40,578 nt of DNA from assembly GCA_964555555.1 (NCBI GenBank), contig CAZKSQ010000001.1:1-40578 (forward strand), in the 5' to 3' direction. Shown piece after piece: positions 17,079-40,578 of this stretch (position 1 is its first letter; the number at the start of each line of letters is the position of its first letter). Source of the DNA: an uncultured Candidatus Saccharibacteria bacterium (lineage in GTDB: Bacteria; Patescibacteriota; Minisyncoccia; Phycocordibacterales; PALSA-1337). A program made the translations under genes and the position numbers. The notes below the pieces were generated by a model. It was not told the DNA's origin. It saw nothing but the letters and a program-made list of their open reading frames with translations, and searched no databases.

Positions 17079-17144
17079 ATATGAATTAGTTAGTTAACTG
17101 CTTATCTTCGCACTAGTGTGACCGCTAGGCATTATCTTCACAAT

Positions 17145-18410: not shown

Positions 18411-18465
18411 ATGAGTTAAATATAGATGATAGGTTTGTTTCAGAATTAATATAGGTATAACTAAT

Positions 18466-23766: not shown

Positions 23767-23897
23767 TTCTTTATAATAAACACTTTCTTTAATGAATTGT
23801 AAAATCAATTTCCACTTCCATATATTGTTACCCAAATGTTTTATACGCGACAAAATAATGTTAAAATTGTAGCAGGCTTCTTTAAATCGATAATGTT

Positions 23898-26381: not shown

Positions 26382-27148
26382 AGATGAATTTTTCAAGCGT
26401 AAACTGGTCAAAATTTTTTTTGGTTCAACTATTTGCTTTTCTGATTGCGGGCTACGCCTTTGTATATAACATTTCTACATCTTTTCTATTTAATCAATAT
26501 ATTGATTCTGATGATTTATATTTTCTATTTGCACCTAGAGGTGTTGCCTGGCTCCATTATCCCTTTGTCACACTTATCGTTTTTATAATCATTTCCTTTT
26601 TATTATCTATGATAATAAATCGAGAAACAAGAAAAGCTGGTTATACTATCGGATGGTCGTTTACGGTATTGGGTCTCATGATTCTATTTCTCGTAAATAT
26701 GGGGGATCACTCTGATACTGCCCAGTTTGTCTTCTTTAGTATGGTCGGCCAGACTAGTGTTTTTGTTCTGTTACCTTTGCTTGTAGTACTGCCGATAGTA
26801 TTTTTTATCAGCGAAAAGTTGAAGGTAAATGAGATCGGAGTTGTTTTTGTTCTTGCCGTTATAGCACTGGCAATAAATATTGCATACATCAATACTTGCG
26901 GCTTTGGAAACAATGCAAAATGTGAATTACGGCAGCGGATTATCAAATTTGACGCCTCTGCATGTGAAGTTCCGGGATTGGCCACTTTTGAGAAAAATAA
27001 TTGCTATACCCTGATAGCAGCATATTCTGGAGATACAAACTTGTGCTCAAGTGTGGTTACATATGACAAACATAGCGGATTTACATGGCCAAAAGAGGAT
27101 TGTCTGAATAGAAAGAAATTTGATGACAGACTTCTTTACCATTTCTAG
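26378..27148 (+). CDS. Polytopic membrane protein with a Cys-rich C-terminal extracytoplasmic domain
   Basis: ATG at 26378 overlaps the upstream TGA (ATGA coupling). About 5-6 TM helices, then a tail of about 85 aa with 6 Cys. No recognised family. Confidence 0.65.
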   Translation: MKMNFSSVNWSKFFLVQLFAFLIAGYAFVYNISTSFLFNQYIDSDDLYFLFAPRGVAWLHYPFVTLIVFIIISFLLSMIINRETRKAGYTIGWSFTVLGLMILFLVNMGDHSDTAQFVFFSMVGQTSVFVLLPLLVVLPIVFFISEKLKVNEIGVVFVLAVIALAINIAYINTCGFGNNAKCELRQRIIKFDASACEVPGLATFEKNNCYTLIAAYSGDTNLCSSVVTYDKHSGFTWPKEDCLNRKKFDDRLLYHF

Positions 27149-27204
27149 TTTTCTTGTTTTACATCACCTCATTTGATAATGTACAAAAAGAAAGGAGATA
27201 CGAT

Positions 27205-27417
27205 ATGCAAGTGAAAATCGGCTCTGGAATTGCAAACAAGGATCCGGATAATCGCGACTTTACTGTGACACTCATTCCGGAAACAGCAGAGGAAAATGAA
27301 GCACTGGAGATTATGAGATCTTTTTCCAGTATATCAAAGACCTTCCACGGCTTCTTGCGTTCTGCCTATGAGGTTAGTGTGCACGGAGTTGGTGTTACCG
27401 TATCCTTGTTCCCGTAA
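27205..27417 (+). CDS. Small hypothetical protein (70 aa)
   Basis: ATG at 27205 is preceded by AAAGGAG at 27190-27196 with 8-nt spacing, and followed by a terminator. No homology recognised. Confidence 0.5.
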   Translation: MQVKIGSGIANKDPDNRDFTVTLIPETAEENEALEIMRSFSSISKTFHGFLRSAYEVSVHGVGVTVSLFP

Positions 27418-27423
27418 GACTGT

Positions 27424-27452
27424 AGAGAGTATCCAGCTGGGTACTCTCTTTT
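27424..27452. terminator. Bidirectional terminator hairpin between the two convergent island operons
   Basis: AGAGAGTA-(10-nt loop)-TACTCTCT followed by TTTT. It lies between the stop at 27417 (+) and the stop at 27460 (-). Confidence 0.6.
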
Positions 27453-27459
27453 CATATAA

Positions 27460-29295
27460 TTAAAACTCTGCTCCGAAGATTTCCTTAAATTTTGTCGTAT
27501 GTTCGGTAACAGTTTTTTCATTCTGCTCTATTGCGTCCAAATCTATAATGAGATCATGCTGAAATCTCAGCTCCTTTCGGCTGAACATTATTTCGGACTT
27601 ACTCTTTTTGCTCTTCTCATGAGTATTTATCGCTACTTGTATGGCTTCATTATTTTGTTCAATATGTTCCTTGATAATTTTCAATCTCTCCGTTACGTGT
27701 TCAGCCATATCTACGTCATATATTTTTGAGATTTTATCCAAAACGCTTTTAAAGGCTAGAAGTTGGGAATAGCTGTTAATAAGATCATCTCGTCTTGCCA
27801 TAAAAGCGACCCCCAATGCCGCATCTTTGAACTTTAAAACTTCCTTACTATCCTCTACGATTTCCTCGAAAAAAGCGTTTCCTCTTGTAAGAGCAGAAAT
27901 TTTTGAAACAGTCATGCCAAACATACTGAATATATCCGCCTCACCCTCATCATTCATGCTGCAGACCAAAAGCTCCTGATCAAGGTGTTCGCTTTTGTGA
28001 TCGGGGTCATTTTCGTCATAAACCAGACCCAAATTTGGATCATATCTGTCTACTTGTTCCTTGAATTTTATGACAAAATCGTAATCTTCAGTAAAAGCGC
28101 ACAAGCTTTCGCCGCTGATAACACTTCCTTCGAATGGCTCAAACGCGACTTTTTCTTCAATTTCGCCTTTTTCTGTTATTTCAATGCCAATATTTTCTAA
28201 TACTTTTCTGGCTGTTTCCAGTTCGCCGTTATACAGGCCTTTGCTGTAAAGCATATCTTTTCTGGTTTCTTCTTCAGTTCGCTCGCGCAACACAAGCTCA
28301 CCAGAAATGACATGACCTTGTAGAATATTTCTGGCCTCGACTTTCGTCGAAAGCCATCTGTCTAACAGCTCCGAGGAATTACTTACTGAAAGCGGCCGAT
28401 AATCATTAAGGATTCCTGCTTCTATTCCTATACGGAGACCTTCCTTGAGCATTTCCTCAACTGATATTTTGTGTTCCGCGGCGTATGACACAACTGATGC
28501 AGTCACATCATTGCAGGTGACGCTGTCTTCGTCGTCACATTCCTGATTTTTAGATAACGGTTTGCCGTTAATTTTAATACCCTTACTCCTCAAAAAGTAT
28601 TTAGCGACCTCGACCAAAGGGATGCAGGCAAAATAATGAAAAAGCTGGTATTCCTTGGCGAATTTATTATAGCTTTTTTCTGCTACGAGTTCCGCCAGTC
28701 TTTCTTTGGCTGTGTCCGAGAGTTCAGATTTTCCGTTGTATAGATTTGCCAAGATTTCTTCTTGATCAAGATATTGGTGGTCAGTTTCAATATCGGGGTA
28801 GAGTTCATTCATTTTCTCTTTGTCTTCTGAGCTAAGCATCTGAAATGCGAGGTTATATACGGCATGTTCTAAGTCAACACCTTCTCGTATTTTTACTGCT
28901 CTTTGCTTAGTTGCAATCTCTGTTGCTTCTTCTACAGTCACTTTCTTTATTTGCTTCAAGGTATTAATGCATCCCGCCATCTCTCTGTGACCGGGATACG
29001 AAAGGAGCTTCATGATTATCGGCAGTTGTGATAGGTACGCTATTTTTGCATCCTTGTAAATGAGTTCTGCTTCGATTTCCATCCTGCCGGAATATTTCCA
29101 ACCGTCGTTTAAACGATTCCATTCTCGCGCCTCAGTGCTATTGTTTGAGTGCCAATTTTCTAGAGCATCCTTGTCTGCCGGAGTAAGTATTTCTTTGCCA
29201 GTCTTCATTTTGTGCACGTCATTTTTTATGAGCAGCAGGAATCTCTCCCGTGCCGTAAGATTTCCTCGATGAAGCATATTTGTGAGATTTTGCAT
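27460..29295 (-). CDS. Hypothetical 611-aa acidic, predicted helical protein (no recognisable domain)
   Basis: Long uninterrupted ORF, last gene of the minus-strand island operon. Its start is 1 nt after the upstream stop. Glu/Asp/Lys-rich, with no TM segment and no catalytic motif I can name. Confidence 0.7.
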   Translation of the reverse strand: MQNLTNMLHRGNLTARERFLLLIKNDVHKMKTGKEILTPADKDALENWHSNNSTEAREWNRLNDGWKYSGRMEIEAELIYKDAKIAYLSQLPIIMKLLSYPGHREMAGCINTLKQIKKVTVEEATEIATKQRAVKIREGVDLEHAVYNLAFQMLSSEDKEKMNELYPDIETDHQYLDQEEILANLYNGKSELSDTAKERLAELVAEKSYNKFAKEYQLFHYFACIPLVEVAKYFLRSKGIKINGKPLSKNQECDDEDSVTCNDVTASVVSYAAEHKISVEEMLKEGLRIGIEAGILNDYRPLSVSNSSELLDRWLSTKVEARNILQGHVISGELVLRERTEEETRKDMLYSKGLYNGELETARKVLENIGIEITEKGEIEEKVAFEPFEGSVISGESLCAFTEDYDFVIKFKEQVDRYDPNLGLVYDENDPDHKSEHLDQELLVCSMNDEGEADIFSMFGMTVSKISALTRGNAFFEEIVEDSKEVLKFKDAALGVAFMARRDDLINSYSQLLAFKSVLDKISKIYDVDMAEHVTERLKIIKEHIEQNNEAIQVAINTHEKSKKSKSEIMFSRKELRFQHDLIIDLDAIEQNEKTVTEHTTKFKEIFGAEF

Positions 29296-29296
29296 G

Positions 29297-29515
29297 TTAT
29301 TTTCTCTTTTTTAGCGTCTGCTCAAGAAATTCAATCCTCTCTTTCAGGTTCGAGACCTCGATCATCTTTGAAAAGGCAAGAGCCAGGCGCGATACGACCA
29401 CGGCGCGTCGAAGCGTGGTTTTTCTTTGGGCTACTTCCTCCAGTGTTTCAGAGACGATTGTGGCCGCATCTTCTAAGCTCATGCATTTCTTTTCATTTTT
29501 GTCTGGTGTATTCAT
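29297..29515 (-). CDS. Small coiled-coil-like protein (72 aa)
   Basis: ATG at 29515 lies 11 nt after the upstream stop. The longer 29554 start would overlap the upstream gene. Contains a heptad-like LKERIEFLEQTLKKRK. Confidence 0.5.
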   Translation of the reverse strand: MNTPDKNEKKCMSLEDAATIVSETLEEVAQRKTTLRRAVVVSRLALAFSKMIEVSNLKERIEFLEQTLKKRK

Positions 29516-29526
29516 AATATTGTCGG

Positions 29527-29916
29527 TTACATTCCTTCCACGATCTCCATCCAAGCCCTCACTTCTGCCGCTTTGCCTGTTTTGGTTGCTTCGCGGTAGA
29601 GTGCGGATAGCACGTTTGGAGTCAATTTCTTAGCCCACGAGGAAATATTTTTCATGAGCCCGCCTGATTCCTCGATTTTCTTGTTCCACGCGGAAAGTGT
29701 TCCTAAATCTTTTATGCCGAATCGTTTGGCAAAATCGGTCTGATTCTTGATATCAAGAAGTGCCATAGCCATTTCGTCATCGATGCCAAGCTTCTCGATT
29801 ACATGTCTTGGCTGTCCGCGGAGAATCGAAGGCATTGATCGCCAAAGCACATAGGATTCGAATTCCTGCTTTTTGTATATGTTCAAGGATTCGCCATCTT
29901 TCGCATCGTTTTCCAT
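29527..29916 (-). CDS. Small phage/plasmid-type HTH DNA-binding protein (weak resemblance to terminase small subunit)
   Basis: 129 aa. NQTDFAKRFGIKDLGTLSAWNKK looks like an HTH, and the C-terminal ALYREATKTGKAAEVRAWMEIVEG resembles phage small HTH proteins. The resemblance is weak. Confidence 0.5.
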   Translation of the reverse strand: MENDAKDGESLNIYKKQEFESYVLWRSMPSILRGQPRHVIEKLGIDDEMAMALLDIKNQTDFAKRFGIKDLGTLSAWNKKIEESGGLMKNISSWAKKLTPNVLSALYREATKTGKAAEVRAWMEIVEGM

Positions 29917-29921
29917 ATGTT

Positions 29922-30689
29922 TTAAACATGCTGTATGAGTTCAGCTTTTCTATTTGTTAATTTCTCCCATCGCTCGACTATGGTGGAGCAGTACGATTCT
30001 TCATATTCGATGGCAAGGCATCTTCTACTCAATTGTTTGCAGGCAATGAGAGTTGATCCTGATCCGGCGAATGGGTCATAGACTATGTCTCCTGGCTTCG
30101 TACTGTGATATATGAGGCGACGCAGTAGTGCGGGCGGTTTCATGGTCGGGTGGAGCCTGCTTTTATTCGGCTTCGGGTAAAAGAGAGCGGTTTTGTCCTT
30201 ATTGCCGAAGTAAGGATGTGTGCCGTACCAGCCATAAAGTATGAGCTCATGTTGAGGGTGAAAGTCCTTACGCCCCATGACAAGGTGATTCTTTAGCCAG
30301 ATCAAAAGAGCTGATTTTGTGAAATTACTATCGTGCAGGGCGTTCAAAAGCTCTCGCAGTTTTGCGTCGCTATTGAATATGTAAAAAGCATTCTTCTCGT
30401 ACAAATGAGGTTTTATAACCCAAAGCCAATTCTTTGAAAAACTATAATAATCTGTTCCAATATTATCACCTTTGATGGGGATAAATTCTTTCCCGTTTAC
30501 TCCTTTGTGAATAGTTTGCAGGAATTCCTGTTTGTTTTCGACATACCCGACTCCATAGGGTGGATCGGTCAAAATAAGCGTCACCTTGTCATTTATGATT
30601 AATTTGTCGACATTTTCTTTCTTGGTTGCATCTCCTAGAAGGAGACGGTGATTGCCTAGCTTCCACATTTTAATTAATTTTTTGTGCAT
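29922..30689 (-). CDS. DNA methyltransferase, beta-class N6A/N4C (DPPY, then FxGSG)
   Basis: Contains LGNHRLLLGDAT, LILTDPPYGVGY, HPTMKPPALL and YDPFAGSGSTLIACKQL. Start is ATG at 30689 or 30668; the longest ORF runs to 30746. Confidence 0.85.
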   Translation of the reverse strand: MHKKLIKMWKLGNHRLLLGDATKKENVDKLIINDKVTLILTDPPYGVGYVENKQEFLQTIHKGVNGKEFIPIKGDNIGTDYYSFSKNWLWVIKPHLYEKNAFYIFNSDAKLRELLNALHDSNFTKSALLIWLKNHLVMGRKDFHPQHELILYGWYGTHPYFGNKDKTALFYPKPNKSRLHPTMKPPALLRRLIYHSTKPGDIVYDPFAGSGSTLIACKQLSRRCLAIEYEESYCSTIVERWEKLTNRKAELIQHV

Positions 30690-31932
30690 GGTCTCCGGTG
30701 AAATGCTCATAACGGCGAACGATGAGGTCGCAGAATGTCGGGTCAAGTTCGACTAAAAATGCCCGACGCTTCAGTTGCTCTGCGGCGATGAGTGTTGAAC
30801 CGCTACCGCCAAAGAGGTCGAGTATAATCTCACCCGGTGCGCTACAGCGTTTCATTGGCTTTTCGTTCAGTGTGATCGGTTTCTGGGTTGGATGTTCGTA
30901 GTCGGCAGTGTTGTCGCGCTTAACGAGCCATAGCTGGACGATTGACATAATGTCGTCATATGAGCCGATCGAATTTACCTCTTTGTTCAATACCTCGGAA
31001 AGATTCTTAACACTCGGGTTCAGTGCTGGACTGCCTCTCGTGCCATATACGCAAGGCTCGATAACTTTATTGAATGCCACCTGTGGTGTTGGATCAAAGT
31101 TATTTTTTACCCAGAAGCAAATACGACGGTTGACCATGCTATTTTTCTCATACAGGTTCTGTAGTAACCAGACATATTTTTCGTCACACCAATAGAAGAC
31201 ATGGACATTGGGATTGCTGGCGGCTAAAGCATTTCTTAGCGATTGTTCAATAAATGATTCATACTCCCTCGTGCCTTTATTGTCGTTCACCATATTATCC
31301 GGCGTATATTTGCCCTTGGTGCCAATACCTTTACGGTAGTCGAGGCCTATATTGTATGGAGGATCGCAGTAAATCATATCAGCCTTTTCTTTACCCATGA
31401 GCTTTGTGACAATGTTTGGATCCAGTGCGTCCCCACAAATGAGACGGTGTTTGCCAAGTTCATAGATATCGCCAACTTTCGTTTCCGGCGTGGTTATCTT
31501 CGCCAATTCTTGCGGAACGTTAAATCCATCATCAGAAATATCAAGCACATCGTCAAAGAAATTATTGAGATCATCCGGTGTAAAGCCGACATCAAGAAGC
31601 ATGTTTGTATCAAAAAGCTTCAGAAGCTCCTCATCCCAATTTCCCAGATTTTTGTTTAGCCGTAGGTTCAGCTCTTTTTCGCGCTCGATTTCCGGAATGT
31701 CGAGATATACTACGGGTACTTCAGTGAAGCCTAGCGTAGTCGCAACCTTAAAACGCAAGTGTCCACCGATTAAAATATTCTTTCTAGCAGGTGCACCATT
31801 AACGATGAGGGGATCGCATAGTCCGAAGCGCTTGATGCTCTCGGTCATGTCAGAGATAATTTTGTCGTCCCATTTTCTGGGATTGTAGGCGGTCGGCTTC
31901 AATTCTTTGATTTGTACTTGCTCTATTTTCAT
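30670..31932 (-). CDS. ParB-like nuclease domain fused to a beta-class DNA methyltransferase
   Basis: The N-terminus (IKELKPTAYNPRKW...SIKRFGLCDPLIVNG) is ParB/Srx-like. This is followed by GKHRLICGDA, IYCDPPYNIGLDY, HPTQKPITL and LDLFGGSGSTLIAAEQL. Confidence 0.85.
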   Translation of the reverse strand: MKIEQVQIKELKPTAYNPRKWDDKIISDMTESIKRFGLCDPLIVNGAPARKNILIGGHLRFKVATTLGFTEVPVVYLDIPEIEREKELNLRLNKNLGNWDEELLKLFDTNMLLDVGFTPDDLNNFFDDVLDISDDGFNVPQELAKITTPETKVGDIYELGKHRLICGDALDPNIVTKLMGKEKADMIYCDPPYNIGLDYRKGIGTKGKYTPDNMVNDNKGTREYESFIEQSLRNALAASNPNVHVFYWCDEKYVWLLQNLYEKNSMVNRRICFWVKNNFDPTPQVAFNKVIEPCVYGTRGSPALNPSVKNLSEVLNKEVNSIGSYDDIMSIVQLWLVKRDNTADYEHPTQKPITLNEKPMKRCSAPGEIILDLFGGSGSTLIAAEQLKRRAFLVELDPTFCDLIVRRYEHFTGDHAQKIN

Positions 31933-32001
31933 GATAGTTGTTTATGTATTACTGATAAGTGAAGTATAGTAACTATTTAAGGCAAAAAAATATGTTGATA
32001 A

Positions 32002-32544
32002 TCAAAATCCGCCGAGTTTTGGCACTTTCACGGCGAAAGAAAGACCAAGCTTTTTCAACTGGATTTTGGCCACATCAAGACTAACTTTGAAGATTTTTGC
32101 GATATCTTCGATATATACGGCTGGTGTTGTTTTGTATATCTCACGAATCACTACTTCTGGCATCAGAATATTGCCGGAAAACTCATCACAAAGCCTTTCA
32201 TCCCAAGTTTTGCTGTTTGCCGAACAGTAGACTGTCTTCGGTTGATTCGGGAACAAAACCATGTGTGCTAGTTCATGCCCGGCCGAAAAGCGCTGACGTT
32301 CGATGACCTCTCTCTCATTTATAGCAACGATCCATCCCGCATGCATGTCTTTTGTTGAAAAAGCTGACGTGCTTTCGGGGAAAGGAATATCTAATCTTTG
32401 GGCGATCTGGACATCACCGACGTATGACTCGATGATGTCGGTTATAGGGATAGGAATCTTAAATAGACCGCAGTCAGCGGCTTCCTTTAGGATTTCATTT
32501 ACTTTGTTATTGGCTTTGATCCGCCATTCGGGAGGAATTAACAT
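32002..32544 (-). CDS. ImmA/IrrE-family zinc metallopeptidase
   Basis: HELAHMVLF supplies the HExxH motif in a DUF955-like context. ATG at 32544 lies 7 nt after the XRE gene stop. This is the typical ImmR/ImmA pairing. Confidence 0.8.
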   Translation of the reverse strand: MLIPPEWRIKANNKVNEILKEAADCGLFKIPIPITDIIESYVGDVQIAQRLDIPFPESTSAFSTKDMHAGWIVAINEREVIERQRFSAGHELAHMVLFPNQPKTVYCSANSKTWDERLCDEFSGNILMPEVVIREIYKTTPAVYIEDIAKIFKVSLDVAKIQLKKLGLSFAVKVPKLGGF

Positions 32545-32551
32545 GGTAAGA

Positions 32552-32890
32552 TTAATTATTAAATTGTTTCTTGATAAGCTCAATGAAAGCTTCGACTGCC
32601 TTGCTCTGTGTATCGTCAAGATTATATTTAGCTCGAAGAAAGGTCGGGGTGCTTGCTTTGGCGATGTAGTCTTCTTGGGTTATACCTGCCTTAGTTAATA
32701 TTAGCTCGACAGGTTCTTTGAGGCCGTTAGCGATTTGTCGAAGTGTTCTAATTGACGGGGAATCTTCGGCGTACTCTCCCTGCTCCAATCGTGAAATATA
32801 TCCGCGGGTAAGCTTGGCATCCTGAGCGAGCTTTTCCTGCGTCATATTTTTATCCTCACGCAAAGACTTTATGACATCGTGCAGTTTCAT
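32552..32890 (-). CDS. XRE-family helix-turn-helix transcriptional regulator
   Basis: IKSLREDKNMTQEKLAQDAKLTRGYISRLEQGE is a canonical Cro/C1-type HTH. Confidence 0.85.
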   Translation of the reverse strand: MKLHDVIKSLREDKNMTQEKLAQDAKLTRGYISRLEQGEYAEDSPSIRTLRQIANGLKEPVELILTKAGITQEDYIAKASTPTFLRAKYNLDDTQSKAVEAFIELIKKQFNN

Positions 32891-33297
32891 AGCTTCAGTT
32901 CAACTTATACTTCTAATGCTTCGACTGCATGAAGTATACCAAGCATGGCTACAAGGTTACAATAGTGTACATCTGTGGATATTGTACTATAGCACTAAAT
33001 ATTATTCTTGTCTATTTATTTACGAAGCCCAAATACTGTCGACTTACCTAAATGAGAATAGTTAATATATCTTTATATTAGGCCATTATTTGGCAAAACG
33101 GACCATCAAACAAGTGCTTAGGATTTGGCTTTGTTTGGGTTTTGCACCATCATTAAAATGCCTGATTTGCTGAAATATGACCCCTATGCGGAGGGGTAAA
33201 GGTTCTACTTGATGTGATGCTCAGGAACCCTTACACTGCCTAACATCACTCCGTCCGAGACGCGGATGGAGCACAAAAACGAGTGCAGCGAGTTTTT

Positions 33298-33432
33298 GTG
33301 CTCCAAAGCGACGCGCCTTCGCGCGTTGCGCGCAGGAATCGAAAAGGTCGAACATATTTTTGAGGGGGCATCCTCCCTCAAAAATGTGAGACCTGTATAG
33401 GTCCTGTAAGGACAGATTCCTGCTGGGAGCAC
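33298..33432 (+). ncRNA. Structured element copy A (about 135 nt), ending in the tRNA-Arg(CCG) 3'-end duplicate
   Basis: Four helices: GTGCTCC/GGAGCAC (closing); hairpin 33308-33329; GCAGGAATC/GATTCCTGC (33332-40 / 33415-23); hairpin 33356-33385 with loop GGCATCCT. It is homologous to 36535-36670, with compensatory changes. Transcription is not demonstrated. Confidence 0.45.
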
Positions 33433-33470
33433 TGTGTTTAGATATGTTCTATCGTATTTGATTATTGGAT

Positions 33471-33479
33471 GCTATAATT
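33471..33479 (+). promoter_or_regulatory. Extended -10 element TGcTATAAT, 6 nt upstream of the BI-1 ATG (candidate leaderless transcript)
   Basis: TGCTATAAT at 33471-33479 and ATG at 33486. No Shine-Dalgarno sequence can fit between them. Confidence 0.35.
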
Positions 33480-33485
33480 TTTGCC

Positions 33486-34325
33486 ATGACAACGCCAGAA
33501 ATGTTGAACTTCATTCGCTTGCAGATCCAGGGTGGCCATAATGCTGAAAGCATTTCAAGCATGCTTATATCTCAAGGCTGGACAACCGATGATGTAAATG
33601 AAGGAATCGTGGCGGCAAAAAGTCTTCAGCCAAAGGAACAAATTATCACAGTCGAATATGCTCGCGCGGAAATAAACAATTTTATTCATAGAGTCTATGC
33701 ATGGATGACTGGCGGCCTTGCTATCACTGGTGCTATTGCTTACCTCGTATCGAACAATGACAATCTTACCCAATTAATTTTAGGAAATCTTTTCATATTT
33801 TTTGGATTGCTTATTGCAGAACTTGTCTGTGTCGTATATCTTGCTCGCGCTGTCCAGAGCATGAATTCTATTCAGGCGGCTGTCATCTTTTTGCTCTACG
33901 CCGCATTAAACGGCCTTACTATCTCGGTTATTTTTCTTGTCTATACAATTTCTTCGATCGGTTCAGTTTTTATTATAACCGCTGGCACATTCGGTTTGAC
34001 GAGTCTTTACGGTTTCTTCACAAAGAAAGATCTGACCACAGTCGGAAATTTTGCTGTAATGGCCCTTATTGGCATAGTGCTCGCTTCTGTAGTTAACCTT
34101 TTCTTTTACAATGACACCACTTCTCTCATAATTTCCTATATTGCCGTTCTGGTGTTTGTGTTGCTTACGGCTTGGGATACGCAGAAAATCAAAAACCTTA
34201 ATGCCATAGTCAAGATAGGGACCGAGATCGAAAGGAAAGAATCAATAGTTGGGGCGCTTACATTATATCTTGATTTCATCAATCTATTTTTGAACCTTCT
34301 GCGTATCATGGGTAGACGCAGGTAA
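33486..34325 (+). CDS. BAX inhibitor-1/YccA-family membrane protein with an N-terminal extension of about 45 aa
   Basis: Seven predicted TM helices. RVYAWMTGGLAITGAIAY and the C-terminal GALTLYLDFINLFLNLLRI are typical of the BI-1 family. Confidence 0.8.
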   Translation: MTTPEMLNFIRLQIQGGHNAESISSMLISQGWTTDDVNEGIVAAKSLQPKEQIITVEYARAEINNFIHRVYAWMTGGLAITGAIAYLVSNNDNLTQLILGNLFIFFGLLIAELVCVVYLARAVQSMNSIQAAVIFLLYAALNGLTISVIFLVYTISSIGSVFIITAGTFGLTSLYGFFTKKDLTTVGNFAVMALIGIVLASVVNLFFYNDTTSLIISYIAVLVFVLLTAWDTQKIKNLNAIVKIGTEIERKESIVGALTLYLDFINLFLNLLRIMGRRR

Positions 34326-34327
34326 TC

Positions 34328-34882
34328 ATGCTTTACACCCGCAAAGGCGACTCCGGCACCACAAAAGCATTCGATTCGCGCCCTGGCGAGCGAATGTCAA
34401 AAGGCTCCTGCCAAACCGAAGCCTTGGGCGCTCTGGACGAGCTCAATTCATTCCTGGGGCTCGTTAAGGTCAAGGATACTGTCAGATGGACTGTAGATTG
34501 GAAACAGCTCGCTGATATCATCCTTTGGGCCCAGAATTGCCTGTTCATCATCCAGGCAGAAGTTGCTGGCGCGGACAAGAAAATAGCCAAAGATAGAGTA
34601 GGCGAGCTCGAAAAGTTGACGGATCTTATCGAAAAAGAAATGCCGCCTATAAAAAACTTTTTCATTTCTGGCGGCACGGAATTGGCGGCACTGTTGGATA
34701 TTGCAAGAACGATGGCACGCAGGGCAGAGAGGGAAGTTGTGAGGGCGGCAGAGAACAAAGAGATCAAGGTCGGAACAGATACGCTGGCTTTTTTGAATAG
34801 GCTCTCATCTTTGCTCTATGTCTTGGCGCGCTATGCCAACTATAAGGCAGGTGTCGGAGAAAAAGCGCCGTGGTATAATTGA
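34328..34882 (+). CDS. ATP:cob(I)alamin adenosyltransferase, PduO type
   Basis: The N-terminus MLYTRKGDSGTT, then LGALDELNS...IQ....A and LAFLNRLSSLLYVLAR, match the PduO/MMAB family pattern. Confidence 0.85.
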   Translation: MLYTRKGDSGTTKAFDSRPGERMSKGSCQTEALGALDELNSFLGLVKVKDTVRWTVDWKQLADIILWAQNCLFIIQAEVAGADKKIAKDRVGELEKLTDLIEKEMPPIKNFFISGGTELAALLDIARTMARRAEREVVRAAENKEIKVGTDTLAFLNRLSSLLYVLARYANYKAGVGEKAPWYN

Positions 34883-34912
34883 GCCAGTTTTTTATCAATT
34901 ATTTCAATATTA

Positions 34913-36358
34913 ATGGACCCTCAACAAAATTCGGGTGATCCCAATGCCCCAGCTCAAGGCTCGCAGTTCGTAGATTATTCGCAGAAAACTGCGCCAGTTA
35001 ATATCATAGATACTCCTCCGCCTGTAGAGGTTCCGAGCACTCCGCCGAGTGAACCCGCCATGCCTCCTCCTAGGGATATGTCGGGCTTCTCCAATACTTC
35101 GCCCGTGCAAAGCCATCATGGTTCTCGCAAATTATTTGCAGTAATCGCCATCATAATCGTTGTGCTGGCAGTCGGCGCATATGGCGTATATGCCTTCATG
35201 GTCTCACCCAGTGCCGCAGTGCCTATGGCTCTGCGCGGCTTTGATAGTGCGAAAAAGATCACCTCTACTTTCAATATCCAAGTTAGCTCCAGCAACAAGC
35301 AGATTGATGGCGCTAGCCTTTCGGTCACGAACGAGCTCGATCGTACCAATGCGAGCACTGTTGCTGGCCAGTCTGACCTCACGGCGAGCGCCAGCGGCTA
35401 TAGCGTAGGCGCCGAAATGCGAGTCGTGAACAATGTGCTCTACGGCGAGCTTACAAGCGCGCCGGCGGCATATGACGCTATGCTTGCAGCCTACAAAAAT
35501 AAGTGGTTTTCCATCTCTCTTGATGCCCTAAAATCTTATGCGAGCTCAACTGTGGGAAGCTATAACGTAGATCCGATGGGAATGCATGCTTCCGTTGCTG
35601 ATCTTTATAGCAAGCTTCTGGATGCCGGAGTCATCACTGCTCCGGCCCTGCAAGGCGTCGGCTTTTCTGGCGGCAGTCTGGTCAAGACCTACACATTCAG
35701 CATCAACAAAGATTCTCTGGCAAAATACATCGCAGATACGATGAGCGCCCAAATGGGATCCTCGACGGAATCTTCGGTCATGACTCGCGCATACGTGGTT
35801 GGTGCTCTTAGCACCGTAGATTTTTCGCCGATCACTGTGACTGCCGATTTTTGGTCAGGGTCTCTGCGCAGTTTTGCGGTAGATGTGAATGTTTCTGCAC
35901 CCGCGACTTCCTATACGCCCGCGACATCGGCGACTACGCATGTTAATGGCACTTACGATCCGAGCGCGACCAGCTTTACGATAACTGCTCCTTCAGGCGC
36001 TACTTCGCTGGACAGCTACTTCACATCTTTGGAAAGCTCTGTGCAGGGCGCCCAAAATAATTCGAAGAACACTCATATCATCAGCGATCTTAACCAGATG
36101 AGGCTTTCGTTCGAATCAAGCTGGAAAAATGGCGCATACACCAGCACTTGCCAATCTCCAAGCCTGGCTTCATACAAAGCAGATATCCAATCCTACGGAT
36201 CCGTGTTTTATTGCCATGCCAATAGCCAAGCTTATTCGCTGACTGCAAATCTTCTGACGGGTTATCCTCCTGATCCAAAGAAGGCATATTACTGCTTCGA
36301 TTCCAACAGCATAGCCTTGTATTTGTCCAAGCCGCCCGCTGGCTATGCGTGCAAATAG
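34913..36358 (+). CDS. Hypothetical membrane-anchored protein (Pro-rich N-terminus, one TM helix, large extracytoplasmic domain with a Cys-containing C-terminus)
   Basis: 481-aa ORF with the TM helix LFAVIAIIIVVLAVGAYGVYAF. No recognised catalytic motif. Confidence 0.65.
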   Translation: MDPQQNSGDPNAPAQGSQFVDYSQKTAPVNIIDTPPPVEVPSTPPSEPAMPPPRDMSGFSNTSPVQSHHGSRKLFAVIAIIIVVLAVGAYGVYAFMVSPSAAVPMALRGFDSAKKITSTFNIQVSSSNKQIDGASLSVTNELDRTNASTVAGQSDLTASASGYSVGAEMRVVNNVLYGELTSAPAAYDAMLAAYKNKWFSISLDALKSYASSTVGSYNVDPMGMHASVADLYSKLLDAGVITAPALQGVGFSGGSLVKTYTFSINKDSLAKYIADTMSAQMGSSTESSVMTRAYVVGALSTVDFSPITVTADFWSGSLRSFAVDVNVSAPATSYTPATSATTHVNGTYDPSATSFTITAPSGATSLDSYFTSLESSVQGAQNNSKNTHIISDLNQMRLSFESSWKNGAYTSTCQSPSLASYKADIQSYGSVFYCHANSQAYSLTANLLTGYPPDPKKAYYCFDSNSIALYLSKPPAGYACK

Positions 36359-36428
36359 TGCGCGACATCAAAATTCGTGATATAAGTATGATGCATATTT
36401 GAGCAGCTTTTTCGCTCGTATGCGACAT

Positions 36429-36501
36429 GGTGCCTATGGTGTAATGGTTAGCACTAGAGCTTGTGGAGCTTTCAGTTCGGGTTCGAATCCCGATAGGCAC
36501 C
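36429..36501 (+). tRNA. tRNA-His (anticodon GTG) with encoded G-1
   Basis: G-1 pairs with C73. Acceptor GTGCCTA/TAGGCAC. Anticodon loop TTGTGGA. T arm TCGGG-TTCGAAT-CCCGA. Confidence 0.9.
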
Positions 36502-36506
36502 CCGAT

Positions 36507-36532
36507 AAAAATCCGCGATAAGCGGATTTTTT
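36507..36532 (+). terminator. Terminator-like hairpin immediately after tRNA-His
   Basis: AAAAATCCGC-gataa-GCGGATTTTT followed by T. Confidence 0.55.
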
Positions 36533-36534
36533 GA

Positions 36535-36670
36535 GGGGTGCCTAAGCAAAGCGCCTGCGCGCTTTGCGGTCGGGATTCGAAGACCTTGAGCATATTTTCG
36601 GTGGGGCATCCTCCACCGAAAATGCGAAAGGTGTACAGAGTCTGTAAGACTCGAATCCCGATAGGCACCC
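36535..36670 (+). ncRNA. Structured element copy B (about 136 nt), ending in a 20-nt duplicate of the tRNA-His 3' end
   Basis: Helices: GGGTGCCTA/TAGGCACCC (closing); hairpin 36546-36567; CGGGATTCGA/TCGAATCCCG (36571-80 / 36651-60); hairpin 36594-36623 with loop GGCATCCT; small hairpin AGTC-TGTAA-GACT. Same architecture as 33298-33432. Confidence 0.45.
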
Positions 36671-36782
36671 ATTGATATCGCATTCCTGTAATAAAAAACA
36701 AAATGCGGCGGCTACTCTGGGAGAGTCATGCGTCGACATGATTTTTGGAGTGTATCGACAAAATTAAACAAAAAGAAAAATT

Positions 36783-36938
36783 ATGAATGACGACAAAGTT
36801 CAAAGAGCCGAAGAAAAAGCAGATAAGTCCGAAGCGAATGCAAAACAAGATCGGGCTGATAGTGACAAGGCAGTAGCAGTTGAATCAAAAGAAAAGGCCG
36901 AGGCTTCCCAAAAAGAAGCAGACAAAGCCAAATCTTAA
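36783..36938 (+). CDS. Possible small Lys/Glu/Ala-rich protein (51 aa)
   Basis: ATG..TAA ORF, below the ORF-track size cutoff: MNDDKVQRAEEKADKSEANAKQDRADSDKAVAVESKEKAEASQKEADKAKS. No clear RBS. The low-complexity sequence makes it uncertain. Confidence 0.3.
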   Translation: MNDDKVQRAEEKADKSEANAKQDRADSDKAVAVESKEKAEASQKEADKAKS

Positions 36939-37040
36939 GAACTCACTTTGAGGATTCTGCTTTAGAGCAACCCCTGCAATCTGAAATATGGTTACGGGGT
37001 TTCATTTCCATATAGTGAATCACAGGGTAGGGTAAAACGC

Positions 37041-37094
37041 AGGAATATAGATTGTTGCATCATCCATCCTCTCAAACTTCCTCTACGACAGCAC
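37041..37094. repeat. Dispersed repeat copy 1 (flanks the lipoprotein gene)
   Basis: GGAATATAGATTGTTGCATCATCCATCCTCTCAAACTTCCTCTACGACAGCAC resembles 37811-37875. Confidence 0.45.
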
Positions 37095-37167
37095 TCTAGC
37101 AGGAATAAAATTAAAATATCTTTTATTTAGATTGTAAAACCAGTTCGGTTTTTAGTATAATTGCGTT

Positions 37168-37779
37168 ATGAAAATCTCTTATAAAATCTATGTGGCGTTT
37201 TCGCTCATTTTAGTCATTCTAATATCGCTTTCACTTTCCAGTTGCGTTGTGCATGCAACTGCTCCAGCACCAGCGAGCGCTTCTTGTCCATTTCATGCTA
37301 CTGTTATTTCATATAAGCAAACTTTTCACCAAGCTGCCGGTGCTATATATCGTGGAAACACTAAGATAGATGTTCCTGAATTTGATATATATGATGTTGT
37401 TTTGAAAATAAACAGCTCGACTTCAAAGGATAATTTATGTCCCACAAAGGGTGAAGAGATAACATCGTCACTTATTGCCACGAATCCAGATTCGTATGTA
37501 CAGCCCACGATGACAGGAAAGGATATATTAGTAAACGGAATCATAATAGAAGGTACACTTCTGGCTATGGATTCTTCTAACATTGGGTTGAGCAAGACTT
37601 TTACTTTAAATCAAATAAGTATTGTCACTAAAGTTCTAAACTCTGCCACCAACACCCCAATAATCATATCAACATCGACATCGCTTATGGCTACCTCAAC
37701 GTCCGATGTGCAAGTTATTTCACAGCCAATACCAAAAAGATTCGTTTGGTGGAATCCGTTTACGTGGTTTGGTTACTGA
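37168..37779 (+). CDS. Putative lipoprotein/secreted protein
   Basis: Signal peptide with the lipobox-like ISLSLSSC. 203 aa, Ser/Thr/Ile-rich. Confidence 0.6.
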   Translation: MKISYKIYVAFSLILVILISLSLSSCVVHATAPAPASASCPFHATVISYKQTFHQAAGAIYRGNTKIDVPEFDIYDVVLKINSSTSKDNLCPTKGEEITSSLIATNPDSYVQPTMTGKDILVNGIIIEGTLLAMDSSNIGLSKTFTLNQISIVTKVLNSATNTPIIISTSTSLMATSTSDVQVISQPIPKRFVWWNPFTWFGY

Positions 37780-37810
37780 TTAAGATATAGTGAACTCTGG
37801 GGTCGAATGT

Positions 37811-37875
37811 GGGAATGTAAATTGTCGCATCACTTCTCCTCTCAAACACAGTTCTAACATCCTCTACGACGGCAC
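37811..37875. repeat. Dispersed repeat copy 2
   Basis: GGAATGTAAATTGTCGCATCACTTCTCCTCTCAAACACAGTTCTAACATCCTCTACGACGGCAC. On the minus strand both copies translate to ...AVVE(E/D)V...DATIYIP(A/T)F..., with copy 1 interrupted. Confidence 0.45.
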
Positions 37876-37972
37876 CCATCGTTATTTTCTGGCAAGATAG
37901 CCTCGTTTCAGTTGGTATTTTCAGTTCTGACCTGATAGACTTTTGTACGGATATGAGACTCAAAATTATTTT

Positions 37973-38326
37973 ATGAATAAAGCAAAAAATGTAGACGAAT
38001 ACATCACGAAAGCCCCAAACGAAATTCGGGGTAAACTGAAAGAGCTTCGTACGCTGATCAAAAAGCTTGCCCCAGATGCAAAAGAACGCATCAGTTACGG
38101 CATGCCGTTTTATGATTACAAAGGACGACTTGTCTATTTTTCCAATGCTAACGGATACATCGGCCTTTATATCCCACCACCCATAATTGTCGAACATGCA
38201 GTCGACCTGAAGGCTTACATAACAACCAAGTCCGCAATACACCTACCTGTCAAAAAACTGCCCATATCGCTTATCAGGAAATTAATCAAAGCACGGATGA
38301 AATATAATGTATCTAAGCTTAATTAA
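37973..38326 (+). CDS. DUF1801 (YdhG-like) domain protein
   Basis: NVDEYITKAPNEIRGKLKELRTLIKKLAPDAKERISYGMPFYDYKGRLVYF matches the DUF1801 pattern. ATG at 37973. Confidence 0.7.
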   Translation: MNKAKNVDEYITKAPNEIRGKLKELRTLIKKLAPDAKERISYGMPFYDYKGRLVYFSNANGYIGLYIPPPIIVEHAVDLKAYITTKSAIHLPVKKLPISLIRKLIKARMKYNVSKLN

Positions 38327-38440
38327 GCCATATCCATCTCTTGGTGCCTTTTCACTTTTATATTTTATTCAAAATAGCTTTTAAAATAGGCTATTTGTGT
38401 GATAAAAGTCTCTGTATCATTAGGGCAATATAGTAAAAGA

Positions 38441-38479
38441 TTAGTGAATTAGTACCATAATAAGCTAGTAATTCACTAA
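38441..38479. promoter_or_regulatory. 11-bp perfect inverted repeat (candidate operator) just upstream of the fic promoter
   Basis: TTAGTGAATTA (38441-38451) and TAATTCACTAA (38469-38479), separated by 17 nt. The repeat ends 3 nt before the -35 hexamer. Confidence 0.4.
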
Positions 38480-38482
38480 AGT

Positions 38483-38511
38483 TTGACAATAAGGAGTGAA
38501 AAGACTATTAT
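38483..38511 (+). promoter_or_regulatory. Sigma70-type promoter for the fic gene
   Basis: TTGACA (38483-38488), a 17-nt spacer, TATTAT (38506-38511). The ATG is 26 nt downstream. Confidence 0.5.
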
Positions 38512-38536
38512 ATTAAAAGTTAATTAACCAAATATC

Positions 38537-39439
38537 ATGGCTATCACCAAACCAATCATAACTAGACTACAAAATCTAAAGACAGAGTACGAGACTCTTA
38601 AAAAAGGAAAAGAGTCACTTTTGGTAATGGTTAATGATGCTGAAGTTGCTGAGGCGGTTTATAACTCGAATGCGATTGAGAACTCAACACTCACTCTTAT
38701 TGAAACAGAAAAGATTCTTCTGGAAATGGCAGTCGCTAGAGAGGTGTCGGTCCGAGAAGTGTTCGAAGCAAAGAATCTTGCTCGAGTTGTTGCTTATATA
38801 AGAAATAAATCTCAAGAAACAGAAATAAATAAAGAAATTATTCTCTTTCTGCACCAGATGCTCATTAGCGGAATAAAAGACGATATTGCTGGTCGTTTCA
38901 GAAAAGTTGGTGAATATGTACGAGTGGGGACCCATATTGCACCAGCCCCAGAACATGTTGAGCGAATGATTGATGCATTGCTCTCTGAATATACCGGAGA
39001 CATTGCAAGTTTTTTTGTAGATAAGATTGCGAAATTCCATCTCGAATTTGAAACGATCCACCCATTCAACGACGGGAATGGTCGTATTGGTCGTGTCCTA
39101 ATAAACTATCAATTTCAGAGGCTAGGTTTTCCTGGAATAATCATTCGTGATAAAGAAAAGAAAGACTATTACAGTACATTTGCTGAATATCGAGAAAAGA
39201 AGACGGCAAAGAAAATGGAAAAGATTATCGCACTCGCACTCATGGAATCACTCCATAAGAGAATTACTTATTTGAAGGGTGAAAAGATTATTACTTTAGC
39301 TGATTATGTTAAACAGAACAATAAATCTGCACCAGCCCTAGCAAATGCCGCACGTCGACAGAATATCCCAGCCTTCAGAGAGAGGGGAGTATGGAAGATT
39401 GCCGAGAATTCTGTATACGAAGGGGCTAAAGAAAAATAA
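38537..39439 (+). CDS. Fic-family protein (class II, intramolecular inhibitory motif) with a C-terminal DNA-binding-like tail
   Basis: The Fic motif HPFNDGNGRIGR lies at 39059-39094. The N-terminal SNAIEN fits the [ST]xxxE[GN] inhibitory helix. Confidence 0.9.
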   Translation: MAITKPIITRLQNLKTEYETLKKGKESLLVMVNDAEVAEAVYNSNAIENSTLTLIETEKILLEMAVAREVSVREVFEAKNLARVVAYIRNKSQETEINKEIILFLHQMLISGIKDDIAGRFRKVGEYVRVGTHIAPAPEHVERMIDALLSEYTGDIASFFVDKIAKFHLEFETIHPFNDGNGRIGRVLINYQFQRLGFPGIIIRDKEKKDYYSTFAEYREKKTAKKMEKIIALALMESLHKRITYLKGEKIITLADYVKQNNKSAPALANAARRQNIPAFRERGVWKIAENSVYEGAKEK

Positions 39440-39537
39440 TTATATGGCAATACTCGATGAATTAAAATCTACTCTAACCGACAGGCTTCGGCCTAATGTT
39501 CTTGTAATAGAACCCGAAACGCAACGTCATCTGTTGT

Positions 39538-39747
39538 ATGCAGATTTCAGGATGGGATTGGACTTTTTTGTGGATTATTCTATGGGTATTCATTTGGCCC
39601 GTCTTTTTGGTTTTCATGCAAAGGATGCGAGGGAGAAGGGACAAACACAGCGAAAATGATAAATCTGCGCTCGATATCCTCAAGGAGCGCTATGCTAAAG
39701 GCGAGATTGATAAGGTAAAATTTGATGAAATGAAGAAGGATTTGTAA
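39538..39747 (+). CDS. SHOCT-domain small membrane protein
   Basis: An N-terminal TM helix (WTFLWIILWVFIWPVFLVF) plus the C-terminal ALDILKERYAKGEIDKVKFDEMKKDL, which is the SHOCT signature. Confidence 0.7.
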   Translation: MQISGWDWTFLWIILWVFIWPVFLVFMQRMRGRRDKHSENDKSALDILKERYAKGEIDKVKFDEMKKDL

Positions 39748-39791
39748 TTGAACAAAAAAATCGTTCGGCTTTTGCGATATAATGCCATATC

Positions 39792-40578
39792 ATGTGGCAA
39801 CAAGCTACCGACCCTCTCCAAAGCATCGCCTTGTCGGCAACTGTAGCCGTCATACCCATCATTTTTTTGTTCGCGCTCCTTATCAGCCGGAAAGTCGCTG
39901 GGCATATAGCCACGGTAATGACGCTAATAGTTGGGTTTATTATTGCTGTAGTAGTCTTCGGCATGCCGGCTGGCTTGGCGGGAATGTCTGCTTTGTATGG
40001 AATGATTTCAGGCCTGTTTCCCATCGGCTGGATCGTCTTGAATGCGGTTTTTCTTTATAATATCAGCGTCGAGAGCGGCAGTTTTGCCATCGTTAGGGAC
40101 AGCATTGAATCAGTTACTTCCGATAGGCGCATACAGGCATTGCTTATCGCATTCTGCTTTGGTGCTTTCCTCGAAGGCGCGGCTGGCTTCGGCGCCCCAG
40201 TCGCCATCACTGCCGGAATGTTGGTGGGCTTGGGCTTCGAAGCGTTCTATGCTGCGGGCGTTTGCCTCATAGCCAACACTGCGCCTGTCGCATTTGGCGG
40301 CATAGGAATAGCTATCATCACAGCTGGGCACCTCACCAATATCGATCCTGATATTTTGAGCAAGATGATAGCTCATCAGTTGCCATTCATCGCTTTTATC
40401 ATCCCGCTCTGGCTGGTGCTCATCATTTCCGGCTGGAAGGGCGCCAAGGCCGCCTGGCCGGCAATACTGGTAACTGGTGCATCTTATGCTCTCACTATGT
40501 TCCTTACGGCGAGCTTCTTGGGACCGACTCTGCCTGACGTGCTCTCGGCTATCGTCTCAATACTTTGTCTCATTGGGC
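39792..40578 (+). CDS. L-lactate permease (LctP family), 3'-truncated by the window end
   Basis: Open frame from ATG 39792 to the window end; it is absent from the ORF track because it has no stop. MWQQ...IPIIFLF...LFPIGWIVLNAVFLYN...IQALLIAFCFGAFLEGAAGFGAPVAITAGMLVGLGF...CLIANTAPVAFGGIG are canonical LctP blocks. Confidence 0.9.
   Translation, partial: MWQQATDPLQSIALSATVAVIPIIFLFALLISRKVAGHIATVMTLIVGFIIAVVVFGMPAGLAGMSALYGMISGLFPIGWIVLNAVFLYNISVESGSFAIVRDSIESVTSDRRIQALLIAFCFGAFLEGAAGFGAPVAITAGMLVGLGFEAFYAAGVCLIANTAPVAFGGIGIAIITAGHLTNIDPDILSKMIAHQLPFIAFIIPLWLVLIISGWKGAKAAWPAILVTGASYALTMFLTASFLGPTLPDVLSAIVSILCLIG

Follow-up and report, generated by a model that had tools for sequence, protein, structure and literature searches.

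What is a folded sequence of about 135 nt, ending in a copy of a tRNA 3' end, doing behind tRNA genes in Patescibacteria? The question is raised by a 40,578-nt stretch of contig CAZKSQ010000001.1, from an uncultured Candidatus Saccharibacteria bacterium (the whole stretch is referred to here as the window), which carries two copies, A and B, of a patescibacterial structured element whose end is a copy of the final 18-24 nt of the upstream tRNA, accompanied by a matching antisense segment. A preliminary description of this DNA had proposed that A and B share one architecture; all of the sequence features that it listed were found where it had placed them, and the two copies do fold alike. Two further copies, C and D, were found outside the window, and all four lie on the tRNA-sense strand, 3' of a tRNA gene (Arg-CCG for A, His for B, Val-CAC for C and Leu-TAG for D). 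We conclude that the element is real, well supported and apparently undescribed, and that it has an unusual tie to tRNA-gene attachment sites. As to what it is, we tentatively favor a small non-autonomous module inserted at tRNA genes and encoding a new structured RNA that is fitted to its tRNA.

Folded alone, A and B reached minimum free energies (MFE) of -75.9 and -79.4 kcal/mol, respectively, and in neither case did any of 200 shuffled sequences fold as well (z scores in Table 1; those for C and D were -8.4 and -6.5 to -6.9). A consensus of the four copies made with RNAalifold retained helices H2 (9 bp, with a variable tetraloop), H3 (7-12 bp), H4a (5 bp), H4 (14-16 bp, capped by a CAUC loop and containing one invariant G.U pair) and H5 (5-6 bp around CUGUAAG). 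Standard pairs filled 99.4% of the 168 pair cells in A-D, and 28 compensatory double changes were observed. Two-sided changes occurred in 21 of the 42 pairs, compared with 7.4 +/- 2.0 in shuffles, none of 500 of which reached the observed value; when the 3' partners were slid by 1-3 columns, only 1-4 pairs had two-sided changes. Selection on structure had been proposed from A and B alone, and every covarying change listed between them was correct; the compensatory variation is strong and now extends across four copies. Two helices had been drawn too small. The hairpin given as 11 bp with the loop GGCATCCT is there as H4, with the larger stem, shorter loop and invariant G.U pair described above, and it is lengthened by H4a across a tandem G.A/A.G internal loop, whereas the hairpin with the TGTAA loop, also present, has 5 bp rather than 4.

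The stems are free to vary, whereas loops and junctions are almost fixed, the exception being the tetraloop of H2. The near-invariant parts are GGGGCAUCCUCC, CUGUAAG, UGUA and the tandem G.A loop, which separates H4a from H4 in each of the four copies. The signals also favor one strand: in the tRNA-sense orientation there were six G.U cells and no A.C cells, and a covariance model built from the four copies (R1) scored 145-153 bits on that strand versus 23-34 bits on the opposite one. Such strand-specific signals are typical of RNA, yet they are compatible with a folded single-stranded DNA.

The last 18 nt of A (GATTCCTGCTGGGAGCAC) are identical to the 3' part of tRNA-Arg(CCG), from G57 in the T-loop to 1 nt beyond the discriminator base, and the last 20 nt of B are identical to the corresponding part of tRNA-His. 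We refer to this tRNA segment as X, and to its antisense as X', which has two parts, X'a and X'b. X begins at T-loop position 54-57 and ends 1-4 nt after the discriminator, i.e., just past the gene; the repeat is 20 nt long in B, 24 nt in D, 18 nt in A, and 8 plus 6 nt in C, where it has decayed. Because trailer bases are included and CCA is absent, it was the gene that was copied and not the mature tRNA. An att-type direct repeat of the tRNA 3' part, as at tRNA-gene islands, flanks the insert; the two copies of X are of the type left by site-specific integration in a tRNA gene, and the extent of X is the classical footprint of such an event. Perfect repeats of 18-24 nt, as in A, B and D, point either to more recent insertion or to selection. 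It had been suggested that further copies be examined for a position 3' of a tRNA and for that tRNA's own 3' end, and both C and D have these features.

Within H3, the 3' strand is the T-loop/T-stem 3' sequence of the tRNA itself in all four copies, and the 5' strand, X'b, is its antisense (GCAGGAATC/GATTCCTGC in A, TCGGGATTCGAA/TTCGAATCCCGA in B, GGAGGGTTCGA/CGAGCCCT in C, with one G.U pair, and AGGACTCGA/TCGAGTCCT in D). In A and D, X'b is a true complement, not a copy of the 5' T-stem strand of the tRNA, and X' spans the whole repeat in A (16 of 18 nt) and B (19-20 of 20 nt). The preliminary description had conceded that an att flank might account for the conservation; an att-like repeat does explain why the element ends like a tRNA but leaves the compensatory stem changes unaccounted for.

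The helix H1, thought to close the element, exists in A and B, the only copies in which X'a pairs with the acceptor part of X, but it is not conserved. D has no X'a, i.e., no acceptor-strand antisense, and keeps the remaining fold; in C the downstream acceptor copy, the 3' partner in H1, has decayed, and X'a still matches the tRNA proper. X'a is also able to pair with the upstream tRNA tail, in a hairpin that the spacer extends (strands GGAGCACAAAAAC/GTTTTTGTGCTCC in A and AGGGTGCACAC/GTGTGCACCCT in C). When A was folded with 36 nt of upstream context, H1 was outcompeted, the MFE form using a 14-bp hairpin between the 5' strand of H1 and the upstream GGAGCAC. Whole transcripts of tRNA plus element folded, for B and C, with their partners swapped, the near X pairing with X' and the far X completing the cloverleaf; since both arrangements use identical pairs, thermodynamics cannot choose between them. 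With H1 not conserved and the T-loop bases held in a duplex of 9-12 bp (H3) rather than displayed as a T-loop, the idea that the element mimics a tRNA minihelix holds only in part.

Table 1. Coordinates of the element, its helices and associated features (positions in the window unless a locus is named; paired strands are separated by a slash)
Feature	Position	Strand	Details
Copy A	33298-33432	+	fold z -9.84; R1 147.3 bits, E 2.6e-32
A, H1	33298-33304/33426-33432		5' strand/3' strand
A, H2	33308-33316/33321-33329		
A, H3	33332-33340/33415-33423		5' strand is antisense X'b
A, H4a	33345-33349/33390-33394		
A, H4	33353-33368/33373-33388		loop CAUC
A, H5	33401-33405/33409-33413		loop inside CUGUAAG
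Direct repeat X of A, downstream	33415-33432	+	18 nt = tRNA-Arg(CCG) positions 57-74
Copy B	36536-36670	+	helices as in A; fold z -9.67; R1 148.7 bits, E 1.2e-32
B, H1	36536-36543/36663-36670		
B, H2	36546-36554/36559-36567		
B, H3	36569-36578/36653-36662		
B, H5	36638-36643/36647-36652		
Direct repeat X of B, downstream	36651-36670	+	20 nt = tRNA-His T55 to position 74
Copy C	L002:557-691		after tRNA-Val(CAC), begins 16 nt past gene; metagenome-assembled genome (MAG) labelled Saccharibacteria
Copy D	L075:2243-2108	-	directly after tRNA-Leu(TAG); metagenome contig
tRNA-Arg(CCG)	13499-13571	+	ARAGORN; Rfam tRNA 65.4 bits; 13554-13571 = upstream repeat for A
tRNA-His(GTG)	36430-36503	+	ARAGORN; Rfam; 36483-36502 = upstream repeat for B
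Leftover tRNA-Arg tail GGAGCAC	33268-33274	+	precedes spacer of unit A
Spacer of unit A	33275-33297	+	AAAAACGAGTGCAGCGAGTTTTT
Spacer of unit B	36504-36535	+	A5 - TCCGC GATAA GCGGA - T6 hairpin, read from sequence; folds as hairpin
Inserted low-GC island, outside element	13572-33267		~19.7 kb; GC content, Pfam, junction GGAGCAC
Large serine recombinase, 474 aa	13662-15086	-	in island, 90 bp from tRNA-Arg(CCG), opposite strand (Pfam)

The units thus have the order tRNA[X] - short spacer - X'a - H2 - X'b - H4a/H4 - H5 - X, over about 125-170 bp. B starts 32 nt downstream of tRNA-His(GTG), whereas A now lies 19.7 kb downstream of tRNA-Arg(CCG), separated from it by an island. The core of the A spacer, CGAGTGCAGCGAG, is homologous to the C spacer, CGAGTCCGCGAG. 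The spacer hairpin of B resembles a bidirectional terminator; a terminator consensus scan omitted it, most likely because its A and T runs pair and so consume the T tail.

The history of the element can be followed at one tRNA gene. The histidine kinase beside C has orthologs with conserved synteny, and at three of these loci the tRNA-Val(CAC) gene could be compared. The locus of C (L002) has the intact element. In a second locus (L131), where the kinase is 70% identical and whose sample also holds the organism of the window, the tRNA array likewise ends in tRNA-Val(CAC), and is followed by a remnant consisting of the 3' half of the element only, i.e., the 3' strand of H4, H5 and CGAGCCC (22.7 bits, E 7e-4); a 55-nt sequence substitutes for the 5' half. 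In a third (L132; kinase 56% identical) tRNA-Val(CAC) is followed by a plain terminator and the element is absent. This demonstrates presence/absence variation at an orthologous tRNA-Val(CAC), at a single site, and the series of intact, remnant and empty loci implies that the element is dispensable, old at this gene and able to decay. No copies were found at loci of more distant orthologs of the kinase, and the neighborhoods of Bax1-I homologs had neither synteny nor copies.

Some other features of these loci were noted. In L002, C abuts the stop codon of the convergent histidine kinase, whereas at the orthologous L131 and L132 loci genes for UppS and an acylphosphatase lie between kinase and tRNA-Val(CAC); this difference in spacing implies a rearrangement or deletion beside the element. 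The 55-nt sequence in L131 also follows tRNA-Leu(GAG) in the window. This second tRNA-trailing sequence, CACTGCTTCGCTC...CGCAGTGCA(A/G)GCACTGCGA(A/G)GA with a hairpin CGCAGTGC/GCACTGCG, occupies 13374-13425 of the window and L131:6640-6722 (minus strand), and folds weakly better than shuffles (z about -2).

How widespread is the element, and does it belong to anything known? Searches with the models of Rfam 15 gave nothing over A or B, either in the whole window at the gathering threshold or in 33000-36900 at E <= 10, the only matches in the scanned regions being tRNAs and LOOT; the preliminary description was therefore right not to recognize a named RNA family. ARAGORN reported six tRNAs and no tmRNA in the window, none overlapping the element, which follows two of the six, and no covariance-model match linked the element to tRNA, tmRNA or YrlA. 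Searched with the covariance model, the sequences examined yielded only A-D, and the window yielded no further copy even with filters off. A strict motif applied to 185,579 species-representative genomes (one per species) gave one true match, C, and three chance matches; a looser pattern applied to metagenomes gave one true match, D, among at least 120 matches listed; and two patterns applied as a DNA motif scan to viral contigs gave none. The known family size, at least four intact copies, is therefore a lower bound. The nearest relatives of the genes around C are in Paceibacteria/Taylorbacteria-like Patescibacteria, despite the Saccharibacteria label of its MAG, and the source metagenome of D (3300031240) also contains contigs identical to the window.

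Protein-coding content and partner enzymes were sought too. B, C and D have inserts of 125-170 bp without any open reading frame (ORF), and their neighbors are housekeeping genes; concatenated six-frame translations of the element matched nothing in a protein database at E <= 10, and neither phage nor plasmid records contained a blastn match to the element. No tyrosine recombinase was present in the scanned ORFs of the window or in six scanned ORFs of L002 (those of L075, the contig with D, were unscanned), and no reverse transcriptase in the scanned ORFs, nor any Rfam match to introns or retrons, so that the features of a retron, group II intron or diversity-generating retroelement (DGR) RNA are lacking. 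A scan limited to the sigma-70 consensus found no promoter of that type immediately ahead of A or B. The boxes that pair are made of tRNA sequence instead of the GTTRRRY/RYYYAAC of integron attC, and occur as single copies rather than arrays; nor does the element have the DEDD recombinase that adjoins an IS110-type bridge or seek RNA, the sole DEDD-like match being the housekeeping RuvX at 4503-4904, and its complementary bases lie in helices rather than loops.

Several other candidates were rejected: an intron-containing or permuted tRNA, for want of a D or anticodon arm; a riboswitch, because C faces a convergent gene and the downstream genes are unrelated; a known ribozyme such as the hammerhead, no model having matched; a repetitive extragenic palindrome or miniature inverted-repeat transposable element, as the insert ends lack terminal inverted repeats; and a target-site duplication made by a transposase, the repeat varying between 18 and 24 nt in length and always starting in the T-loop.

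The distance between A and its tRNA is explained by the insertion of an island that carries a recombinase between them. The GC content of the island is 0.37-0.44, compared with 0.47-0.51 in the flanks, and besides the serine recombinase it carries two N6/N4 DNA methylases (one of them a ParB-N fusion), a 1766-aa subtilase with FG-GAP/PKD repeats and, at its far end, a helix-turn-helix/ImmA (IrrE-like) pair. GGAGCAC, the last 7 nt of tRNA-Arg, occurs at both island junctions. Together with the spacer upstream of A it reproduces the layout of tRNA tail, spacer and X'a seen in B and C, and the presence of this tail and C-like spacer just upstream of A places the junction at 33267/33268 and A outside the island. 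In the simplest history, unit A once directly followed tRNA-Arg and the recombinase island later entered at GGAGCAC. On its island side (TCCGAGACGCGGATGGAGCAC), the junction agrees with the tRNA 3' end in 13 of 21 positions, which plausibly fits a half-site for the serine recombinase. The dyad symmetry of the reconstructed attP of this recombinase was not above that of shuffles and so gives no position for the crossover, and no relatives of the enzyme were found in viral contigs.

Further observations concern this island and other parts of the window. The gene content of the island is partly like the integration module of the Dehalococcoides ssrA islands. A LOOT RNA (Rfam RF03000, 84.1 bits) lies at 15140-15257 (+), between the serine recombinase gene and a gene for a 574-aa protein with a weak peptidoglycan-binding match. 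At the stop codon of the recombinase (13636-13662) the sequence GGTTCGATTCTCGCGGAGG resembles, from the T-loop onward, the 3' part of a tRNA that is absent from the window, and may be a relic of an older attachment site. Near the start of the window, positions 32-47 (CCCGAGAGGAATCGAA) are a perfect 16-nt reverse complement of tRNA-Arg(TCT) (8345-8419), from T-loop to acceptor start; that tRNA is on the opposite strand, at a distance of 8.3 kb. In 1-180, read on the minus strand, about 100 nt run from GGGAATCG, which pairs with CGATTCC, to ...TTCGATTCCTCTCGGGtccgcca, just after a terminator at 149-178; this stretch follows the same logic of antisense and tRNA 3' copy as A and B, with a different and weakly folding core, and is cut by the window start; a contig reached through the first ORF ends within the window and gives no sequence farther left. 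Right after B begins another block of low GC content (0.38-0.42; 36700-40578), with a Fic/DOC gene at 38537-39439 and several ORFs without a family match. Possibly this is a further island adjoining the downstream repeat of B; no far boundary is reached within the window.

What, then, is the element? That it is inserted as a module is suggested by the discrete units with homologous spacers and att-type repeats, by the four tRNAs with matched X and X', and by a sporadic spread (two of six tRNAs in the window) combined with presence, decay and absence at one site. That it encodes an RNA is favored by the tRNA-sense strand, the RNA-like motifs, the conserved loops and a position suited to co-transcription with the tRNA. 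The module would then be an integrative element that is not autonomous but relies for movement on a recombinase encoded elsewhere, and that supplies a replacement 3' end and so leaves the tRNA intact. Its cargo would be a putative structured RNA, some 115-135 nt long, transcribed together with the tRNA or immediately after it. After release of the tRNA, X'b (and X'a where present) might pair with the displaced tRNA 3' segment, closing the RNA, hiding the tRNA fragment and yielding defined, protected ends, while the invariant H4/H5 domain would be the functional part, most likely a protein-binding one.

Several observations weigh against an inserted RNA-encoding module. None of B, C and D was found to have a recombinase beside it, and the single such gene in the window is part of a different island; this is one reason why our confidence in any mechanism is limited. 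Just ahead of A and B the scan showed no promoter-like site, and a terminator-like hairpin precedes B. Only four intact copies are known, three of which may stem from one organism or close relatives, and the strict motif matched a single genome among the species representatives. The sharing of C with a genome whose kinase is 70% identical speaks for long vertical residence rather than frequent movement. In addition, the acquisition of matched X and X' for four tRNAs has no explanation, and sequence by itself does not separate an RNA fold from one of single-stranded DNA.

One alternative, which we regard as rather unlikely, keeps the RNA and drops the movement: the element would be an immobile, resident chromosomal gene for a non-coding RNA (tRNA-like, or a 3'-trailer RNA), whose tRNA copy arose by local duplication and was retained because the RNA needs to imitate, or compete with, the top half of the tRNA. 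It might be a substrate of, or a decoy for, RNase P, RNase Z, the CCA-adding enzyme or a tRNA-directed toxin, or else it might control how the neighboring tRNA matures. The constant position of the four copies, on the same strand directly after a tRNA, is in keeping with this, as is the three-way junction of H1, H2 and H3 in A and B, which falls at the T-stem/acceptor junction (65|66) and resembles a tRNA with H2 replacing the D and anticodon arms; the partner swap in a transcript of tRNA plus element would also allow each to influence the folding of the other, and C was inherited vertically. However, H1 is missing or decayed in half of the copies, the T-loop is paired away in H3, and the trailer bases without CCA point to a copied gene rather than a mature tRNA. 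An immobile RNA sits poorly, too, with its limitation to a minority of the tRNAs in the window and its loss without replacement in L131 and L132, and it is difficult to see how four independent local duplications could share one foreign core if no mobile step was involved. A second alternative, which appears to us unlikely, keeps the movement and needs no RNA function, the fold being a recombination site of single-stranded DNA like integron attC or the attP(+) of phage CTX. Pairing of X' with X would rebuild the tRNA-gene target as a duplex (H3 plus H1) on one strand, with H2 branching at the T-stem/acceptor junction and H4/H5 as the variable terminal part; a tyrosine recombinase encoded elsewhere would swap one strand with the tRNA gene, and replication would fix the insert. 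The layout tRNA[X] - spacer - X' - core - X is the product expected from integration of a folded circle, and it agrees with that of integron cassettes, which runs core site ... inverse core - attC - core site. Coverage of the repeat by X' from end to end in A and B is expected if the repeat is the recombination site, which would give X' a mechanistic role. The structured single-stranded nature of attC is discussed in PMC5737381. The lack of a detected promoter also agrees with such a site, and the type IV pilus genes of the window (PilM) would be compatible with uptake of single-stranded DNA. On the other hand, no integrase was found near any copy, there is neither a cassette array nor a GTTRRRY-type core, and no source is known for a gene-free circle some 150 nt in size. 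Conservation is far higher in loops and junctions than in stems; the tandem G.A loop, the T-loop-like UGUAA pentaloop and the three-way junction are typical of RNA; and D, without X'a, nevertheless retains the remainder of the fold.

It is also conceivable, although we think it quite unlikely, that the X'a/X'b antisense of a miniature element itself sets the tRNA-gene target of integration by base pairing. A folded single strand could offer a duplex copy of the target to a recombinase acting in trans, as at attC and the CTX phage site but with the target set by the sequence, or the module could act as an RNA guide. We retain this idea because the origin of matched X and X' is unexplained and because X' spans exactly the repeat in A and B. 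Least probable, and in our judgment very unlikely, is that only double-stranded protein sites are involved, the element being the right-hand attachment arm (the attR side of attP) of islands moved by large serine recombinases, with A the end of a 20-kb island and B, C and D the remains of deleted ones. A serine recombinase does lie 90 bp from tRNA-Arg(CCG), with the 18-nt repeat at the end of A 19.9 kb away, and the same geometry is seen in the Dehalococcoides ssrA islands, where a conserved motif immediately precedes the right repeat (PMC3146451). However, GGAGCAC and the C-like spacer put A outside the island, and B, C and D have the same discrete boundaries without a recombinase, unlike random deletions. 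Palindromic protein sites do not need so many compensatory double changes at near-complete pairing, the signals favor one strand (G.U, tandem G.A), and viral contigs held no relatives of the recombinase. We return, still tentatively, to an inserted module that encodes an RNA fitted to its tRNA.

If the element is an RNA, it represents a new structured class from the poorly explored Patescibacteria, of an undescribed design in which the fold is built partly from a displaced piece of the neighboring tRNA and an antisense made to measure. If instead the antisense directs insertion, it would be a tiny gene-free element of about 150 nt with a target set by base pairing, i.e., a nucleic-acid-programmed, tRNA-gene-specific integration system in Patescibacteria; this would bear on how integrative elements choose and change their tRNA targets, and the element might then serve as a programmable integration site. 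In either case, tRNA 3' fragments beside tRNA genes are not always inert scars, and the covariance model is a concrete tool for searching metagenomes.

Among known systems, islands in tRNA and tmRNA genes, whether of P4 type or the Dehalococcoides ssrA islands, which insert in the T-loop, have a 20-bp repeat of the 3' end and carry a CcrB-like serine recombinase beside attL (PMC3146451), resemble the element in a repeat (here 18-24 nt) that runs from the T-loop to just past the gene, in leaving the tRNA intact and in stacking insertions at one tRNA, as with the recombinase island upstream of unit A. However, the insert is only about 125-170 bp with no integrase or other gene, and it holds an antisense of the repeat and a covarying five-helix fold, neither of which has been described for att regions. 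Integrase-less integrative derivatives mobilized in trans, such as cis-mobilizable elements, are likewise small and att-flanked, lack a recombinase and occupy several sites, but those known are kilobases long, derive from one integrative and conjugative element at one site and do not have a structured RNA as their defining feature. With integron attC and the CTX phage attP(+) the element shares the order of site copy, short body, inverse copy, structured middle and site copy, compensatory change that preserves structure, and preference for one strand; it differs in its target, a tRNA gene rather than attI or dif, in lacking a GTTRRRY or Xer-type core, a cassette array and a nearby integrase, in a middle that is conserved in sequence and multi-branched, and in the presence of RNA-like motifs. 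As in tRNA-like RNAs (the tmRNA domain, YrlA/Y RNAs, viral tRNA-like structures and mascRNA), the two ends of A and of B form, by pairing, the acceptor stem of a particular tRNA, continued by a helix derived from the T-stem, with a single arm in place of the D and anticodon arms. Unlike these RNAs, the element has its T-loop bases paired, no CCA or free discriminator base and an H1 that is not conserved, and it copies the neighboring gene exactly, trailer bases included. Finally, although it has no nearby DEDD recombinase, reverse transcriptase or TnpB, matches no model of a guide-bearing RNA and keeps its complementary segments paired internally rather than exposed in loops, the element resembles the IS110 bridge and seek RNAs, group II introns with their exon- and intron-binding sites (EBS-IBS) and the omega RNA of TnpB in having a segment that is complementary to its own insertion target and that varies with this target from copy to copy.

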